Shown here piece by piece: positions 11,780 through 52,928 of a DNA stretch of 64,000 bases. The notes under the pieces are model-generated. The model ran no database searches. It was given only the letters and a program-made list of their open reading frames with translations, and had not been told where the DNA came from. Position numbers and translations under genes: made by a program. This DNA comes from Minisyncoccota bacterium. Its GTDB lineage: Bacteria > Patescibacteriota > Minisyncoccia > Phycocordibacterales > UBA9973. Position 1 is the first letter of the stretch. Each line of letters starts with the position of its first letter. The stretch is taken from positions 65,094 to 129,093 of the forward strand of contig JBBABB010000001.1 in assembly GCA_041657885.1 (NCBI GenBank), written 5' to 3'.

Positions 11780-12646
11780 ATGAAAGACATACCTACATCT
11801 CCGCGTATTATACAAATTAGGCGTAATCGTCGAGCGCGACGATTACGCCTGCTTATTCTTTTTTTTATACTTTTTGTTTCTATAACATGGGCTCTTGCTT
11901 TTTTTTCAGAAGATAGACACGTAATAATAGATAAAGTTGTAATAACGGGGACTCATATTATAGACCAAGACGAAGTAGAGAAAGAAGTTCGCGCAGATAT
12001 TTCTGGTAAATATGTTTATCTTTTTTCTAGGGCGAATAGTTTTATATACCCACGCAAACAAATTTATAATAATTTAATTTTAAATTTTCCAAGGATAGAG
12101 TCGCTTTCAGTTTCGCGTGAGGGATTAAAAACTTTGAAAATAAATATAAAGGAAAGAGTAGGCTCATTTTTGTATTGTGGAGTGATAATACCAGAAAATA
12201 AAGATGATGTTGGAGAAAATTGTTACTTCATAAATAATGATGGTTTTATTTTTGATAAAGCGCCATATTTCTCTGGAAATGTTTATTTTAAATATTATAT
12301 GGACCTTTCTGGTGGTGGCGAAAATCCATTGGGAAAGCAGATGACTAATGTTGAACGTTTCCACGCACTTGAAAGATTTATTGATGGGGTTACATCTTTA
12401 GGCTTTAAACCGATTTACCTAACTGTAGATCCAGATGGTACACATTCTTTGTATTTGAATCATGGGATAAATAATACTATACCTAAAATTATTTTTAAAA
12501 GTGATAATGATTTAGAGGTTATATTAGATAACCTAACTCTTTCTATGAGAAAAAAAGAATTTGCCGGTGAGATAAATTCAAAGTATAATACACTCCTATA
12601 TATAGACCTACGATTTAGTAACAAGGTCTTGTATAAGTTTCAGTAA
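11780..12646 (+). CDS. Cell division protein FtsQ/DivIB-like (single TM helix followed by a POTRA domain)
   Basis: Basic cytoplasmic N-terminus, one TM helix, then a POTRA-like segment (VIIDKVVITGTHIIDQDEVEKEV...). Confidence 0.55.
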   Translation: MKDIPTSPRIIQIRRNRRARRLRLLILFFILFVSITWALAFFSEDRHVIIDKVVITGTHIIDQDEVEKEVRADISGKYVYLFSRANSFIYPRKQIYNNLILNFPRIESLSVSREGLKTLKINIKERVGSFLYCGVIIPENKDDVGENCYFINNDGFIFDKAPYFSGNVYFKYYMDLSGGGENPLGKQMTNVERFHALERFIDGVTSLGFKPIYLTVDPDGTHSLYLNHGINNTIPKIIFKSDNDLEVILDNLTLSMRKKEFAGEINSKYNTLLYIDLRFSNKVLYKFQ

Positions 12647-12788
12647 AAGGAATCTTTTAAAAATCATAAAATAGCTCTTCTCGAAATGCACGGATATTTT
12701 TCTGCTGAAAAATTCCTCGTGCTCGCGCCGTCGCGCTCCCAAGTCATTTCTCAAAGACTATTTTATTAATTTTAAAAGATTAGATATT

Positions 12789-13751
12789 ATGAAAAATTTC
12801 TGGGAAAAGTTACCGAAACCGTTTTTTTGTTTAGCGCCGATGGCCGATGTCACCGATGCGGCTTTTCGTAGTATTATTTGTAAATATGGAAAACCTGATG
12901 TTTTGTGGACAGAATTCATTTCTGCCGATGGGCTTATAAGTGCTGGTAGAGAAATTCTAAAAAATAATTTAATTTATTCAAAAAAAGAAAAGCCAATTGT
13001 CGCTCAACTTTTTTCTTCTAATCCAGTGAAGATGCGTCAAGCTGTAAAGTATGTCGCCTCACTTGGTTTTGATGGTATTGATATCAATATGGGATGCCCA
13101 GATAAATCTATTGAGAGACAAGGTGCAGGAGCGGCGATGATGAAAGATATGAAAAAAGCAAGAGAAATAATTCAGGCAGTCAAAGATGGAATAAAGGACT
13201 CTAAAAAGAATGTTTCAATATCAGTTAAAACTCGTGTCGGTTACAACAAAAGCCAGCTGGAAGAATGGATTCCTTTTTTGTTGTCACAGAATATTGATGC
13301 TCTCACTATTCATGCTCGTACCAGAAAGGAAATGTCAAAAGCTCCTGCAAACTGGGATTATGTAAAAAGGGTAGTGGAGATTAGAAATCAAATGATGGTC
13401 AAAACTAAAATAATTGGTAATGGTGATGTGAGAGATATAAAAGATGGTATAAAAAAAGCAAAAGAAACAGGTTGTGATGGTATTATGCTCGGCCGAGCAA
13501 TTTTTGGGAATCCATGGCTATTCTCTGGAAAAATTCCAACGACCAAAGAAAAATTAAAAGTTATGGTTGAACACACAAAACTATTTGAGAAAATTCTCGG
13601 CAAACATAAGAATTTTGCTGTGATGAAAAAACATTTCAAGGCATATGTAAATGGTTTTGACGGAGCTAAAGAATTACGAGTAGAATTGATGGAAACAAAA
13701 ACCACCAAAGAGGTAGAAAATGTAGTTAATGATTTTATCAAAAATCATTAA
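12789..13751 (+). CDS. tRNA-dihydrouridine synthase (Dus family)
   Basis: Dus signature (FCLAPMADVTDAAFR) with the FMN-binding TIM-barrel pattern and a catalytic Cys (INMGCP). Confidence 0.85.
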   Translation: MKNFWEKLPKPFFCLAPMADVTDAAFRSIICKYGKPDVLWTEFISADGLISAGREILKNNLIYSKKEKPIVAQLFSSNPVKMRQAVKYVASLGFDGIDINMGCPDKSIERQGAGAAMMKDMKKAREIIQAVKDGIKDSKKNVSISVKTRVGYNKSQLEEWIPFLLSQNIDALTIHARTRKEMSKAPANWDYVKRVVEIRNQMMVKTKIIGNGDVRDIKDGIKKAKETGCDGIMLGRAIFGNPWLFSGKIPTTKEKLKVMVEHTKLFEKILGKHKNFAVMKKHFKAYVNGFDGAKELRVELMETKTTKEVENVVNDFIKNH

Positions 13752-22981: not shown

Positions 22982-23122
22982 GAGTAATGAATTAATTATA
23001 TGTTTAATCCTGGAAAAGGAGAGTTTTAATGATTTGTGTTTCTATAAAAAATTAATAGATGAGCTTGTAAAATTGTCTAAAAAATAATATAGTATAGAAG
23101 TTATTTTATTTTTAAAGTTTTT

Positions 23123-23195
23123 GCCCTGTTAGCTCAGCTGGTAGAGCAGCTCCCTCTTAAGGAGATGGTCGGGGGTTCGATTCCCTCACGGGGCA
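23123..23195 (+). tRNA. tRNA-Lys (anticodon CTT)
   Basis: Hand-folded cloverleaf. D-arm TAGCTCAGCTGGTAGAGC, anticodon loop CTCTTAA, T-loop TTCGATT, discriminator A. Confidence 0.9.
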
Positions 23196-23197
23196 CA

Positions 23198-23529
23198 ATA
23201 ATAAAAACCGTTGTAAAATGGTTTTTATTATTGTGCCCCGTAGCGAGACAACTGCTTGTCTCGCGTGAGGGAATCGAAAGACTTTTCCATACGAGCGAAG
23301 CGAGACGGAAAAGTACCTGCCTATGTAATAGGCGAAAGCGTACCCGCGTTTCCCTCACGGGGCACAAATTTTTGCGAAGCACAAAATTTGTGATTCTTAA
23401 ACATATCTAAATATATGTTTAAGAAAATCGAAAGACGAAGGCTGACGAGCCGAGTCGGGGTCGCGAGATTTTTCAGTAGAAAAATACTTGTGACCGAAAA
23501 CGTAATCGCGATTCCCTCACGGGGCACAA
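23198..23529. repeat. Array of tRNA-Lys 3'-end copies. Direct 18-mers ttccctcacggggcacaa at 23,350-23,367 and 23,512-23,529 match tRNA residues 23,181-23,197. A split inverted copy lies at 23,232-23,273 with a 23-nt palindromic insert. Intervening segments are rich in GNRA-type loops (gcgaaagc, tcgaaaga, gcgaagc)
   Basis: Exact string matches read on both strands. A terminator-like hairpin (aataaaaacc..ggtttttatt) follows the tRNA at 23,198-23,230. A perfect 11-bp hairpin lies at 23,390-23,417. Confidence 0.5.
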
Positions 23530-23578
23530 AAATTTGTAAATGTATTTGATTTTTTATTTTTAGGAGTATAATTAGAAT

Positions 23579-23959
23579 ATGGAAAAATTTAATCTTGAAA
23601 ATAATAAAGATTTAAAAATAGGAAAAAATGGGCAAATTGATATTGATTTCGAGGGAGCAGAAAAAAGAGAAAGATTAGAAATAGCTGAAAAATATCATGT
23701 TCTTCATCCTGAAAAATTAGAAAAAAAGGAAGATAGTAAGTGGTATATAGATAATATGGAAGTTGAATACTGGGATAGTTTGTTTAGTGAGAAAGATAAT
23801 CCTTATAAAATTGTTAAAGATAACAACCAAGAAATCAAAAAAGAATTTCAGTTGAAAGTTGACCAGCAAACACAAAAACAAAAACCTACAAAAATAAAGC
23901 ATGGACATAAGCATCATAGAAAAACTCCTGATTCGATGGGTTTTGATCGTTATCATTAG
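23579..23959 (+). CDS. Hypothetical Lys/Glu-rich protein with a His-rich C-terminus (HGHKHHRK)
   Basis: ORF only; no recognisable domain. Confidence 0.4.
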   Translation: MEKFNLENNKDLKIGKNGQIDIDFEGAEKRERLEIAEKYHVLHPEKLEKKEDSKWYIDNMEVEYWDSLFSEKDNPYKIVKDNNQEIKKEFQLKVDQQTQKQKPTKIKHGHKHHRKTPDSMGFDRYH

Positions 23960-24244: not shown

Positions 24245-25830
<1,586 letters not shown>

Positions 25831-26133
25831 TTTGAAACCGTTGTGCTTTGCACATGAACTCGACACAAATTACGAATGGTTACGAATGTACGAATTAAAT
25901 TCGTGTCATTCGCATAAATTCGTGTATTAGTATCGTGTTAGCGAAGCGTAACTTATTGAGTCGATATTATGTGCCTCAATTGAGCACATAATGGACATTG
26001 ATTTTAAGTCCTAAAAGAAATCTGACAACAAGGGAAAGACCTGATAGGACGGAACAATAGAAAAAATATTTTTCTTGATTGATTTGATTATGAAAAAATA
26101 CCTCATTAAAGTTTAAATAAAATTAAACAAAAA

Positions 26134-26430: not shown

Positions 26431-26766
26431 GGTTTGTATTGGATGGATACGCTCCGACCCAGGTCAGAGTGAGGAAAGTCCGGGCACATATTTCGACCTT
26501 GTGTTGAAAAAACGTAGCGGGTAACACCCGTCGTCCCCGCCCGAACGGCTGACTAGTTCAGTCGGGCAGGCGCAAGGACAGAGTTGAGAACAGTGACGAA
26601 TCCCGACCTAGGTCGGGGGTGAAACGGCAAAATACTTACGCGTGTGCAAGATCGTGTTCCGATTTCGGTCGGAAAGAATCGCTTGAGGTGTAGAGTAATT
26701 TACATCCTAGATAAATATCTATCGCTTTAGCAATAGAGTACAGAACCCGGCTTATAGATACAAACC
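26431..26766 (+). ncRNA. rnpB: RNase P RNA (bacterial type A, compact)
   Basis: P4 signature gaggaaagtccgggc near the 5' end and acagaacccggcttata near the 3' end. The P1 pairing ggtttgtat/atacaaacc closes the molecule. A TTGTCA..TATAAT promoter lies just upstream. Confidence 0.85.
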
Positions 26767-26774
26767 AAATACAT

Positions 26775-49864: not shown

Positions 49865-50749
49865 ATGAACCAATTTTTAATCTTAATAGGAATCCTTGTA
49901 GGATTAGGGATAATTGTCTCTGTATTGGAAAGTAAAAATAAATATATAAAACGGACTGGTGAAATCGTGTTTGGAACGATAGCGACTGTGATTTTAAGTG
50001 GTATGGTGACTTTGCTTGTTATGGGGGCGCTTATTTTAACCCTTGGGGCATTCGTTTGGATTTTGGCTTTCGTATTTGATTTGCTAAATTTGCCTCCTGG
50101 ATTCGAGGATGGGGTATTTTCTCTGCTCCGCCCTGCTTTTTTCTGGGCGAACGATGACTATATTAAGCCGACTCTCTTCGTTCTGTGGGTAATTATCCTT
50201 TTCGTTGGTTTCAAGGGAGATTGGGTGAAAAAGAAACTCGCTTGGGTACTATATCGGAAAAGGGCGACACCCGAACCAGAAAAATCACAGCAAGAATTAC
50301 CAAAAATGAAAAAGGAGGAAACTGTGTTGGATTATTTTCATCGCATACAATCAATAAAAAATAAAGATAGTAAAGACCGAGAGAAAAAACCACGGAAGGA
50401 GCCATCTTCATCACCAAAGAGATTATTGATTCCCTTGAGCAACTCGGCAGAGGAAGCTTTGGCGGCGGTAAAAGCTCATTTGTTAGACAACCATAAAACA
50501 AAGGGGAACGAAGAAGAATTTGAAGTCCAGGTACGGCTACCACGGGAGACGTATGAACCACAGGAGAAACAGCAGCAGTCGTCTTCGAATCTGTTATCGG
50601 AGAGTTCGGACGAAGAAATAGAATTAGTAGAAGGAGATTCGAAAATCAAAGCGTTTCAATTAGGCTCTCCATTTCAAAAGACCAAAGAGGAAAAAGAACT
50701 ACCCACAAAAAATAATAATCAACCATCACAAAACAATGAAAAAAATTGA
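49865..50749 (+). CDS. Hypothetical membrane protein with a charged low-complexity C-terminal tail
   Basis: Four TM helices followed by a Lys/Glu/Ser-rich region. Confidence 0.4.
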   Translation: MNQFLILIGILVGLGIIVSVLESKNKYIKRTGEIVFGTIATVILSGMVTLLVMGALILTLGAFVWILAFVFDLLNLPPGFEDGVFSLLRPAFFWANDDYIKPTLFVLWVIILFVGFKGDWVKKKLAWVLYRKRATPEPEKSQQELPKMKKEETVLDYFHRIQSIKNKDSKDREKKPRKEPSSSPKRLLIPLSNSAEEALAAVKAHLLDNHKTKGNEEEFEVQVRLPRETYEPQEKQQQSSSNLLSESSDEEIELVEGDSKIKAFQLGSPFQKTKEEKELPTKNNNQPSQNNEKN

Positions 50750-52364
50750 AGACAAAAAAATTAAATACTTTTTGTATGCACGAAAATCGAGTGAGTCGGA
50801 AGAGCGCCAAGCGGCATCGATTGAAGACCAAATCAAAGAATTAACGAGAATTGCGAAAGATTTTAATTTGGAGATTATAGAAATATTTACAGAGTCGCAG
50901 TCAGCTAAAGCGCCTGGTCGCACAGTGTTCAACGAAATGATTAGACGTCTCTATGCTGGAGAAGCAAATGGCGTTTTGTGTTGGAAGCTGGATAGACTTG
51001 CTAGAAATTTTATAGATGGCGGTGCCATCATTGACCTGCTTCAAAGCGGAAAGATGCAAAGTATCCGAACCCACGAGAAATTTTATCTTCCATCAGACAA
51101 TGTGCTAATGATGGCGATGGAGTTTGGAATGGCAAATCAATTTGTTCGAGACCTTTCGGTGAATGTGAAGCGCGGTCTTAAAAACAAAGCAGAGAAGGGT
51201 TGGCTACCTGGCATTGCTCCAATTGGATATCAAAGCACTCCTGACCGAGAAAAAGGATTCAAGGAAATAGAAATTGACCCTGAGCGCTTTCCGCTTGTTC
51301 GTCGAATCTTTGATTTAATGCTCACGGGAAATTATACTGCTCCGCAGATATGGAAGATGACAAAAGAATGGAATCTAACAACCATCAAGCGAAAGAAAAT
51401 CGGCGGTCATCATCTCTCAAAGAGTGGAATCTACGCTCTTCTCGCAAATCCTTTCTATTATGGACGCTTCGAATATCCTGTCGGTAGCGGAAATTGGATA
51501 CAAGGAAAACACAAGCCGATGATTGAGGAAGAAGAATTTAATCATATTCAGAGAATGCTAGGAAAGAAAGGTAAGCCGTGTCCCAAGACTCACCTTTTCG
51601 CTTTTACAGGAATGATGCGTTGCGGTTTTTGTGGAAGTTCTATTACTGCTGAAACAAAAACGAAGAGACAGAAAAATGGAAATGTTCACGAATACATTTA
51701 TTATCATTGCACTAAAAGAAAAAATGAAGCTTGTGTAGAAAAATCTGTGGAAGTAAAAAACCTTAATGCGCAAATAGATGAACTTTTATCTCGCATCACT
51801 ATTTCCGAGGGGTTCAAGGAATGGGCAATAAAATATCTACACGAAATAAGAGAAAGCGAAGCTGAAAGCCAGGAAACAATTCTTAAAAACAAAAATAAGG
51901 AACTCGAGTCGGTAAATACCCATTTATCTAAGCTCATACTCGACTACACTTCTGCTGAAAATACTGATGGAGGTATTATGTCTGCTGACGAACTCAAAGC
52001 AGTAAAGGGAGGCTTGCAGAAGCGTAAAATTGCCCTTGAGGAAGAATTAACGAAAGTAAATATAGAAAAGGACAAGTGGTTAGAATTGAGCGAGAAAACA
52101 TTTAATTTTGCAAGATACGCTCGTAGTTGGTTTGAACAAGGCAATAACGATACCAAAAAATCTATACTAAACTGTCTTGGTTCGAACCTCATCATAAAAG
52201 ACCAAAAACTCAATGTTTTACTGCATCCTTTCTTCTTGAGTATCTTTGAAGAGAAAGATAAGGTGGAAGCAAATTTTGCTTCTGCTCGAACCTCCAAAAA
52301 CCTTTTATCTGAAAGACAAAAAGTTAATTTAGACCCAAAATACAAAACATTGCTCCGTGGGTAG
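50736..52364 (+). CDS. Large serine recombinase (resolvase-type catalytic domain, recombinase domain, zinc ribbon, C-terminal coiled coil)
   Basis: Catalytic region (YARKSSESEERQAASIEDQ), recombinase domain, and Zn ribbon (CGFCGSS..YYHCTKRK). The stop codon overlaps the 3' end of the tRNA-Asn on the opposite strand. Confidence 0.9.
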   Translation: MKKIEDKKIKYFLYARKSSESEERQAASIEDQIKELTRIAKDFNLEIIEIFTESQSAKAPGRTVFNEMIRRLYAGEANGVLCWKLDRLARNFIDGGAIIDLLQSGKMQSIRTHEKFYLPSDNVLMMAMEFGMANQFVRDLSVNVKRGLKNKAEKGWLPGIAPIGYQSTPDREKGFKEIEIDPERFPLVRRIFDLMLTGNYTAPQIWKMTKEWNLTTIKRKKIGGHHLSKSGIYALLANPFYYGRFEYPVGSGNWIQGKHKPMIEEEEFNHIQRMLGKKGKPCPKTHLFAFTGMMRCGFCGSSITAETKTKRQKNGNVHEYIYYHCTKRKNEACVEKSVEVKNLNAQIDELLSRITISEGFKEWAIKYLHEIRESEAESQETILKNKNKELESVNTHLSKLILDYTSAENTDGGIMSADELKAVKGGLQKRKIALEEELTKVNIEKDKWLELSEKTFNFARYARSWFEQGNNDTKKSILNCLGSNLIIKDQKLNVLLHPFFLSIFEEKDKVEANFASARTSKNLLSERQKVNLDPKYKTLLRG

Positions 52365-52720
52365 GGATCGAACCTACGACCAATCGCTTACACTTTATCT
52401 CCTATTACTAGAAGTGTGGACTATATCATCTCCATGTTCATAATTTTATGAATTTAGGAGCAAGGCGCTTCCCATCCGATTATTACCGGAAAGTACTCCC
52501 CGAAAGGATAGTCTCTACACCTTCCTCGATTTTGTGTCGAGGCTTGGCTCGGGATTACCCTAGGCTAAATCAATTATAAATAATTGATCGCCCGAACTTT
52601 TGTTTTCAAAAGTTTTTAGGGGCTTCCCCGAATTCACCTTGTTTTTCATCCTACTTTTCAATAGAAAGCTGCGTAAATTTTCTTTCCACAGGCGATCGCT
52701 CTACCGCTGAGCTACCACGG
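52353..52720 (-). tRNA. tRNA-Asn (anticodon GTT) interrupted in the anticodon loop by a 296-nt group I intron
   Basis: Exon 1 is 52,687-52,720 (TCCGTGGTAGCTCAGCGGTAGAGCGATCGCCTGT). Exon 2 is 52,353-52,390 (TAAGCGATTGGTCGTAGGTTCGATCCCTACCCACGGAG). The joined anticodon loop is CTGTTAA. U1-A72 and discriminator G are as in E. coli tRNA-Asn. A tRNA-Thr alternative (splice after CT) is not fully excluded. Confidence 0.75.
52391..52686 (-). ncRNA. Group I intron of the cyanobacterial tRNA-Leu intron type (about 300 nt, no ORF)
   Basis: P7 halves AGACTA and TAGTC (ggtgtagagacta ... gatatagtcc). P3/P4 block aatcccgagccaagcc. Exon CTGT pairs with internal guide GCAG with a U-G at the 5' splice site. 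The intron ends in G. Confidence 0.75.
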
Positions 52721-52928
52721 AATGTATCTACTTATAAAGTAGATGTGGTTATAATATCAAAAAAATATCCAAAAAGCAAAGTAAAATGATAATATAAATA
52801 TGGAAAGATAACCTACCCACAAAAATTGCTTTTTTTTATAAATAGTTGTATAGTTAGAACATTAACAATAAGCCTATATATTAATTATATGTTTTGTTGA
52901 TATTATTAATAATAAAAAAATAAAAAAT

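Follow-up and report, generated by a model that had tools for sequence, protein, structure and literature searches.

A family of short structured units behind tRNA genes of Patescibacteria, seen from a tRNA-Lys locus

The tRNA-Lys locus and the repeats behind it

The DNA analyzed here (the window) is a stretch of 64,000 nucleotides (nt) of contig JBBABB010000001.1 from a Minisyncoccota bacterium (assembly GCA_041657885.1, positions 65,094 to 129,093, forward strand). It is A/T-rich, Patescibacteria-type sequence that carries genes for transfer RNAs (tRNAs) Tyr, Gln, and Lys, and the closest locus recovered belongs to Candidatus Nomurabacteria GW2011_GWE2_34_25. Behind the tRNA-Lys gene lies a block of ~340 nt made of two intact tandem units of a small, hairpin-rich, non-coding element that occurs behind tRNA genes: a type A unit (23231-23367) followed by a type B unit (23368-23529). 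No open reading frame (ORF) lies inside the units of this block. Labels such as L001 and L082 denote recovered loci or genomes compared with the window. The block takes its repeats from the following gene and gene segment.

23123-23196, + strand: tRNA-Lys(CTT) gene (ARAGORN; Rfam tRNA model, 65.2 bits), CCA not encoded, discriminator A at 23195
23176-23198, + strand: X0, the end of the tRNA itself, namely the T loop, the 3' strands of T stem and acceptor stem, and CAA (repeat analysis)

X0 is the segment that is duplicated downstream in both orientations. An initial annotation of this DNA had reported the tRNA 3' 17-mer in three direct copies, and these are exact: TTCCCTCACGGGGCACA occurs on the + strand at 23181, 23350, and 23512, with the stated start-to-start spacings of 169 and 162 nt, and 0 of 100 shuffles gave four matches to it when up to three mismatches were allowed. 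The direct repeat extends to 21-25 nt (CGATTCCCTCACGGGGCACAA). The split inverted copy described there was confirmed as TTGTGCCCCGT at 23231-23241 and GTGAGGGAATCGAA at 23265-23278, and the recurring block AATCGAAAGAC is indeed present twice (23272 and 23426). Two of the reported hairpins needed correction, as the supposed perfect palindrome of 23 nt is a 9-bp stem with a CTGC loop, and the AT-rich hairpin described as a perfect 11 bp exists with a length of 13 bp. Nor is the inverted copy accidental: it supplies the 5' strand of each unit's closing helix.

The description of the spacers as structured also holds. Compared with shuffles, the block folds with z = -14.4 (+ strand) and z = -12.0 (- strand), its helices covary, and its G+C content is 0.43-0.47 vs 0.21-0.27 in the flanking spacers. 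The earlier view that this is not a CRISPR array agrees with the layout, in which three 21-nt repeats are separated by "spacers" of 141-148 nt that are structured and recur in conserved form elsewhere, and CRISPR-DR families gave sub-threshold matches only in an Rfam scan of the block.

Architecture and covariation of the type A unit

The type A unit and the hairpin that precedes it are composed of the following parts.

23197-23231, + strand: T1, an A/T-rich terminator-like hairpin (96% complementary inverted repeat)
23231-23241, + strand: X'a, antisense of the acceptor 3' strand and trailer (TTGTGCCCCGT), ending opposite tRNA position 66
23243-23264, + strand: P2, a 9-bp stem with the conserved apex AA-CTGC-TT (repeat analysis and covariation)
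23265-23278, + strand: X'b, antisense of the T-stem 3' strand and the entire T loop (GTGAGGGAATCGAA), forming the 5' strand of the closing helix P1
23275-23280, + strand: CGAAAG junction, common to type A and type B units (alignment)
23281-23314, + strand: P3, ACTTTTCC / GGAAAAGT, with a variable top (covariation)
23318-23334, + strand: P4, GCCTAT-GTA-ATAGGC, with a conserved UACC just before it (covariation)
23338-23347, + strand: H5, an optional small hairpin GCG-TACC-CGC, present in some type A and some type B units
23347-23367, + strand: X1, the sense tRNA 3' segment that closes the type A unit, contributing the 3' strands of both P1 and the acceptor-like helix

Type A units thus run in the order tRNA, T1, X'a, A, P2, GU, X'b, GAAAG, P3, UACC, P4, optional H5, and X (the sense copy, as opposed to the antisense copy X'), often with a second terminator 3' of X. 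Pairing between the tRNA 3' end and X'a lengthens the T1 stem to 25 bp (23188-23212 / 23217-23241). T1 went unscored in a terminator scan, its G-C pairs being too few, and T1-like sequences also stand behind tRNA-Lys in genomes free of units (L022 and L040). Most type A units have a terminator-like T1 upstream and no promoter-like site of their own.

Ten type A units yielded a four-helix consensus with double changes in 18 of 30 pairs. Among 98 metagenome matches, aligned to the type A model itself, 94.7% of cells are paired and double changes occur in 29 of the 30 pairs (685 cells); none of 500 shuffles equaled this pairing, and partners slid out of register were 36-51% paired. The P2 stem (halves 23243-23251 / 23256-23264) changes compensatorily, with double changes in 9/9 pairs and 98.6% pairing across the 98 sequences. 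The type A stems contain 62 G.T vs 26 A.C oppositions, an excess which indicates that the fold belongs to the tRNA-sense strand, either as RNA or as single-stranded DNA. Three places are conserved in sequence as well: the P2 apex (AACTGCTT), the GAAAG junction, and UACC.

The position of P2 follows the anatomy of the tRNA. In 29 of the 30 type A units with a recognizable X'a, P2 splits the antisense copy opposite tRNA positions 66|65: X'a ends opposite position 66 in those units, and the commonest start of X'b is opposite position 65. P2 therefore emerges at exactly the point from which, in a real tRNA, the D and anticodon arms project out of the acceptor/T stack. When closed as modeled, the type A unit would reproduce the acceptor/T-stem top half of its own tRNA plus one side arm, with acceptor-like and T-like helices, a discriminator, and a branch point at 7/66|49/65. 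There is no T loop in the unit; pairing of AATCG with CGATT continues the helix instead, which opens into the interior domain. Reduced forms occur as well. Units that abut the tRNA directly have no X'a, and their X mostly lacks the acceptor part (L175, L112), while array-internal units retain only CGATTCCC and begin within the P2 loop (L072, L064, L158).

The type B unit and the stand-alone type C element

The type B unit follows X1 without a gap, and the end of X1 supplies the 5' arm of its first hairpin.

23363-23392, + strand: H1, CACAAATTTT / AAAATTTGTG, with the X1 end as 5' arm (inverted repeat)
23394-23425, + strand: H2, a 13-bp A/T-rich hairpin with arms at 23394-23406 / 23413-23425
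23426-23456, + strand: type B core, consisting of AATCG (the P1 5' strand), GAAAG, and a GAC/GTC stem around H3
23459-23495, + strand: H4, a long hairpin with conserved G.U pairs (covariation; type B model R2, 131 bits)
23501-23508, + strand: H5 of the type B unit, CG-TAAT-CG
23509-23529, + strand: X2, the sense tRNA 3' segment that closes the type B unit (repeat analysis)

Within the core, the GAC/GTC stem lies at 23434-23436 / 23454-23456 and H3 is GGCT-GACG-AGCC at 23440-23451. Fourteen type B sequences are 96.9% paired with double changes in 13 pairs; H3 shows double changes in 4/4 pairs, and the H1 structure is retained with a different sequence in L021. One G.U pair of H4 is invariant (14/14) and a second is present in 10/14, which makes this hairpin specific to the + strand. 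Types A and B differ structurally, as the type A model (R1) scores 19.6 bits on the type B unit and R2 scores 26.1 bits on the type A unit. Beyond X2 the original flank resumes, including the promoter of a small ORF. Two other structures were considered for this unit and set aside. A hammerhead fold fails because, according to the covariation, CTGACGAG in H3 forms a stem of 4 bp and a GRCG loop that lacks sequence conservation, and a T arm with an insertion (GTCGGGG..CGATTCCC) fails because the alignment places GGTC/GACC in H4 instead.

The plan common to both types is modeled as a closing helix between X' at the 5' end and X at the 3' end, with GAAAG and two or three covarying, interchangeable hairpins (P3/P4 or H3/H4) between them. 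The type B core also occurs on its own.

12671-12761, - strand: type C, a stand-alone element of 91 nt, ATAGTCTT...AAGAGCTAT (R2, 34.7 bits, E 1.6e-7)

Type C elements are 87-94 nt long and consist of the H3-H4 core of type B with a conserved closing stem of their own. The copy in the window does not adjoin a tRNA but sits between an ftsQ-like gene and dus, and an Rfam scan of 12560-12860 (E <= 10) gave no match to it. Others were found in L016, L022, L025, L027, L030, L061, L067, L147, and L168, at differing intergenic sites (such as MYG1|obg and yqeY|exonuclease) and mostly antisense to the flanking genes.

Spread of the family and matching to each tRNA

A scan with the 17-mer, using one genome per species, returned 73 loci, 38 of which are Patescibacteria with the same tRNA-Lys; ~20 of these have one to four units downstream and ~15 have none. 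At tRNA-Lys, type A also occurs in L026, L036, L038, L062, L067, and others, and type B in L001, L007, L014, L019, L025, L037, and others. Searches of Patescibacteria genomes and metagenomes with the covariance models of both types produced ~180 matches, some overlapping (98 + 34 for R1 and 19 + 26 for R2). A pattern independent of any tRNA sequence (AACTGCTT-N17-CGAAAGNYTTT), run on metagenomes, found at least 119 loci; among the pattern matches listed, ~20 are chance matches in coding DNA and ~68 have a same-strand tRNA immediately upstream, as do 69 of the 98 type A model matches. Units with an adjacent tRNA lie just 3' of it on the same strand.

These 69 type A matches span 28 tRNA species and 39 distinct T-arm 12-mers, and the units differ accordingly. 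Over the 12 nt that precede the AG junction, X'b complements positions 54-65 of the unit's own tRNA with zero or one mismatch in 56 of these 69 units, and several of the remaining comparisons reflect a register error in scoring. Units behind tRNA-Cys and tRNA-Gln (L016, L045) have their flanking segments altered to match, and type B is rematched likewise, as in L082, where a unit behind tRNA-Trp has an interior ~93% identical to that in the window and Trp-specific X' and X. The sense copy X comprises roughly positions 56-76; it begins near position 56-59 and stops 0 to +3 nt beyond the tRNA (maximum +8). X' covers the tRNA from T-loop position 54 onward plus a few bases beyond its 3' end, and both X and X' carry CCA wherever the gene encodes it.

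Two details bear on what is copied. X' mirrors an unusual T loop (TCCGATT to CGGAAG) at positions absent from the unit's own X, and it is the complement of the tRNA 3' strand instead of a copy of the 5' strand: tRNA-Lys has GCCCTGT and GGGGG, which form wobble pairs, vs GCCCCGT and GAGGG in X'. X' is not a tRNA pseudogene or a retroviral-type primer-binding site, since it complements the gene plus trailer (CAA) and not a mature CCA, and it does not copy the tRNA 5' strands.

A recurrent departure from complementarity was also seen. In ~10 of 98 units, the X'b base opposite tRNA A58 is G and not T (AAGCGAAAG), creating a G.A opposition in P1 (L130, L142, L147, L165, L111, L177, L038, L067). The G may have a structural role, or it may be a trace of copying at a base that is often modified.

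Presence, absence, and exchange of units

Comparison with L001 bears out the initial annotation's view that the extra tRNA 3' ends mark discrete inserted units: the type B units are ~93% identical, and type A is a clean 169-nt indel bounded by the repeat. The syntenic site consists of tRNA-Lys, the AGTATAAT promoter, and the small ORF.

23579-23959, + strand: ORF of 126 aa with no Pfam match and its own promoter-like site TTGATT-N17-TATAAT

At this orthologous site, where a comparison across related genomes had been proposed, presence varies: L012 and L055 have an empty site, L038 and L067 have A, L001 has B, and the window has both. By eye, the ORF start and its -10 box look conserved in L001, L012, L038, L055, and L067, with or without units. 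Decayed type A remnants lie in L006 and L037. In L037 (6730-6960), the T stem of tRNA-Lys has changed compensatorily (GGAGG/CCTCC) and the sense copy of the unit retains the commoner CCCTC, so the copy is not continuously homogenized with the tRNA.

Interiors come as discrete variants common to units at different tRNAs and contigs. Identity between interiors at different tRNAs reaches 93-100% (for example L161 and L084, which differ in X'b); in 15 between-contig pairs the interiors are >=93% identical and X'b is different, and the three units of L167 have interiors 98-100% identical with different P2 and X'. True tandem duplicates exist elsewhere (L149, L115). The units form a large, lineage-specific family of ~90-170 nt non-coding elements that are modular, dispensable, variably present, stackable, and mosaic.

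Neighboring genes and database searches

Within 4 kb of 93 loci, no recurrent integrase, transposase, or reverse transcriptase and no recombinase cluster was found, and the same neighborhoods contained no RAYT or transposase associated with the units. The recurrent neighbors cca, yraN, ruvX, and smpB are explained by conserved synteny of a tRNA cluster and not by linkage to the units. A conserved Patescibacteria neighborhood of cca, tRNA-Arg(TCG), tRNA-Gly(GCC), yraN, tRNA-Pro(TGG), and tRNA-Gly(TCC) was observed in L099, L124, L125, L140, L147, L172, L175, L177, L181, L182, and L188, and several of these tRNAs have units behind them.

The Rfam scan that the initial annotation suggested for known structured RNAs brought up none, from ribozymes and tmRNA to Y RNA-like and t-element-like families: with Rfam 15, over the whole window at gathering thresholds and over 23050-23650 at E <= 10, the tRNA alone scores at the block and all others fall far below threshold. 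No group I or group II intron core appeared in the scan of 23050-23650 at E <= 10; the Rfam scan detects the genuine group I intron of the window (52391-52687), which indicates that the method works. The type B pattern had 0 matches in viral contigs, the seven matches of the type A pattern there were all chance matches in G+C-rich coding DNA, and BLAST of the units against phage genomes and plasmids gave no match. No description of such elements was found in the literature, where coverage of subscription journals was thin. The family is absent from the RNA family library (Rfam) and from the literature found, and it belongs with two known kinds of sequence, structured intergenic repeats and tRNA 3'-end duplications.

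What the units may be

We tentatively favor the view that the units are recombining, dispensable, tRNA-matched structured cassettes. Units would be gained and lost through recombination via the repeated tRNA 3' segment, possibly by unequal crossing-over, by deletion between X copies, or by uptake of foreign DNA in which the tRNA would serve as the left homology arm and X as the right. Transcription, if any, would occur solely as a read-through trailer of the tRNA, and the X':X helix would sequester the spare tRNA 3' end, allowing the real tRNA to fold and be processed normally. Such cassettes would be at home among REP/BIME, REPIN, the modular (A-B-C) pneumococcal BOX, Correia elements, and miniature inverted-repeat transposable elements (MITEs), which are likewise short, hairpin-forming, modular, arrayed, variable, and lineage-specific. 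Dispersal and variability between relatives are observed for the units as for REP/BIME-type repeats, and type C fits the description of small structured intergenic repeats well. Unlike those families, the units have ends that are rewritten to the neighboring gene, and they have neither fixed terminal inverted repeats nor short target duplications. Measured against MITEs in particular, the X'/X ends are inverted repeats, but their sequence depends on the tRNA and the duplication comprises ~20 nt of tRNA.

Several observations weigh against this view. First, neither an enzyme nor an intermediate was found. Second, recombination through X covers gain and loss at one tRNA, but not the movement of an interior to another tRNA with X' and X rewritten. 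Third, the median identity of interiors is 0.65 within contigs and 0.65 between them, so a signature of a recent burst is missing. Fourth, the conserved AACTGCTT, GAAAG, and UACC, the invariant G.U pair, and the tRNA-like placement of P2 look more like selected RNA than like neutral or selfish DNA. Finally, the covariation of type A was counted on an alignment fitted to its own model, which biases the count toward structure.

A second possibility, to which we give less credence, is that the units act as small RNAs that use a tRNA "top-half" as their scaffold and are co-transcribed with the tRNA, their interior hairpins doing the work, perhaps as a domain that binds a protein. Two helices, X'a:X and X'b:X, would imitate the acceptor/T-stem stack, including the discriminator, the trailer, and CCA where encoded. 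The RNA would be excised either by RNase P and RNase Z, to which an acceptor-like helix with its discriminator could offer a handle, or by RNase III, through cleavage of the long X0:T1:X' hairpin. These RNAs would work like plant mitochondrial t-elements, mascRNA from the MALAT1 3' end, and herpesvirus tRNA-linked RNAs such as the tRNA-microRNA transcripts of murine gammaherpesvirus 68 (MHV68), in which a tRNA-like helix and further hairpins share one transcript, an arrangement that is putative here. Those RNAs retain the T loop and elbow, whereas the units continue the helix and mimic a specific neighboring tRNA. The strong covariation, the conserved loops and junctions, the G.U pairs specific to the tRNA-sense strand, and a G+C content far above that of the spacers, as in other structural RNAs of this A/T-rich genome, all speak for an RNA. 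So do the placement of P2 exactly at the acceptor/T boundary (29/30 units, whichever the tRNA), the inclusion of gene-encoded CCA in both X and X', and the recurrence of the H3-H4 core as a stand-alone, hairpin-closed element. A function is harder to reconcile with the ~40% of orthologous tRNA-Lys sites that are free of units, with differences among close relatives, and with truncated inner units and decayed remnants. Most type A units moreover stand behind a terminator-like T1 with no promoter-like site, the elbow used by RNase P, RNase Z, and the CCA-adding enzyme is replaced by continued helix, and the occupation of nearly all tRNA species, instead of one, is hard to fit to a single function.

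The exchange of ends between units with identical or nearly identical interiors raises the question of active mobility, which we consider improbable in the form of a programmable element. In such an element the X' segments would act as guides that pair with the T-loop-to-3'-end strand of the tRNA gene or transcript, an enzyme acting in trans (a single-strand DNA transposase, a recombinase, or a reverse transcriptase) would insert or copy the unit and regenerate X and X' from the target, and P2 would be a protein-binding hairpin between the two guide-like segments. No other reading would explain as well how the same interior comes to have new X' and X, as in the 93-100% identical interiors at different tRNAs with X' and X fully replaced, L082 vs the window included. 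X' perfectly complements the target even where the unit's own X lacks the positions, and at least 28 targets would be hard to reach through chance mutation of X' and X. A hairpin with a conserved loop splitting X' in two is also the topology of dual-guide RNAs (the H/ACA pseudouridylation pocket, the IS110 bridge RNA, and, in PMC12045711, the tigRNA of TIGR-Tas), where two target-complementary segments flank a conserved hairpin in an omega-shaped three-way pairing with one target strand. Unlike dual-guide RNAs, the units come with no protein gene, their "target" is in cis and paired internally, they are much larger, and they form no short-repeat array; TIGR-Tas arrays were ruled out on size and architecture. 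No candidate enzyme is linked to the units within 4 kb of the 93 loci, the only recombinase of the window is of the large serine type, 27 kb away beside another tRNA, and neither viral, phage, or plasmid copies nor a within-genome burst signature nor an intermediate was seen.

The idea that the block is a stack of integration scars is largely refuted and has very little chance of being right. It would take the repeats as attL/attR attachment (att) sites and arm fragments of kilobase-size integrative elements or prophages whose tyrosine integrase crosses over in the tRNA-Lys T loop. Among tRNA att sites a T-loop class exists, as do cis-mobilizable elements that have att boundaries and no integrase. 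Like such sites, the sense duplicate of each unit begins in the T loop, ends shortly beyond the tRNA, and bounds the insert, the tRNA stays intact, and the tandem layout resembles island accretion. The initial annotation had accordingly offered a decayed stack of att sites, left by small integrative elements that targeted tRNA-Lys, as one alternative and a structured non-coding RNA as the other, and each captures half of what is there. As in an integrative element, direct repeats of the target tRNA 3' part bound the insert; an integrase and a single target are lacking. Unlike att sites, the units are 90-170 nt long, have no arm-type sites, possess an antisense target copy that pairs with the sense copy, and enclose a covarying RNA-like fold. 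They are not decayed but intact, of uniform size and in two conserved folds with compensatory changes over >150 copies, and neither coding remnants nor similarity to phage or plasmid records was found. No integrase or other mobile-element gene accompanies them within 4 kb of the 93 loci, and tRNA-Lys is no specific target, given a type A unit rewritten for each of at least 28 tRNA species, which would demand equally many integrase specificities.

A local tandem duplication of the tRNA 3' region, or degenerate tRNA pseudogenes, without wider significance, is barely credible: the period is similar (162-169 nt), each repeat ends in the tRNA 3' end, and true tandem duplicates occur in L149 and L115, but A and B are different types (19.6 and 26.1 bits crosswise) and not mutual copies, each type recurs behind unrelated tRNAs in other genomes, and X' complements the 3' strand with no tRNA 5' half. 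The Escherichia coli tyrT locus has 178-bp distal repeats, each with the last 19 nt of tRNA-Tyr. The units resemble these as tandem repeats of similar period behind a tRNA, each ending in its 3' end, and differ from them in that the tyrT repeats belong to a single locus of one species and have no antisense copy, conserved fold, or spread across tRNAs.

These readings are not fully exclusive and are partly compatible with each other, and none of them explains how a unit comes to match a new tRNA. It is conceivable, though we think it unlikely, that the matching reflects a categorically new programmable mechanism, in which X'a-P2-X'b would be a bipartite guide that reads, in any tRNA gene or transcript, the strand from T loop to 3' end, each event regenerating X and X' from the target. 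If so, the top-half mimicry would serve targeting or replication, akin to the genomic-tag idea and to retroplasmids, whose reverse transcription begins at tRNA-like 3' ends. Another new reading would be a cis-regulator for each tRNA, with X' toggling between the real tRNA 3' half and the decoy X.

Other features of the window

Three further features of the window are recorded here. A tRNA-Asn(GTT) gene at 52353-52721 (- strand), missed by ARAGORN, is split between anticodon positions 35 and 36 by a group I intron (~52391-52687; Rfam Intron_gpI, 63.3 bits), whose 5' exon ends in U and which itself ends in G; no unit lies behind this tRNA. A large serine recombinase gene (Resolvase, Recombinase, and Zn_ribbon_recom domains) at 50736-52364 (+ strand) is convergent with the tRNA-Asn gene and abuts its 3' end. 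It may mark the edge of an integrated element and is positionally unrelated to the tRNA-Lys block. A 16S ribosomal RNA (rRNA) gene at 24245-25832 (1588 nt) is followed after ~600 nt by RNase P RNA (26431-26770) instead of spacer tRNAs and a 23S gene; 23S is absent from the 64-kb window, and the rRNA genes appear unlinked.

Significance for Patescibacteria

For annotation, the family warns against reading additional tRNA 3' ends in these genomes as integrase scars, and for comparisons of strains the units are a marker of strain-level variation. The genomes of Patescibacteria are very small and have little DNA to spare, yet many carry a conserved structured element behind a large share of their tRNA genes. 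This implies either sequence-programmable copying or reading of tRNA 3' ends or an unstudied RNA device specific to each tRNA, and the covariance models, together with the tRNA-independent pattern, make both possibilities testable in genomes, in transcriptomes, and in vitro.

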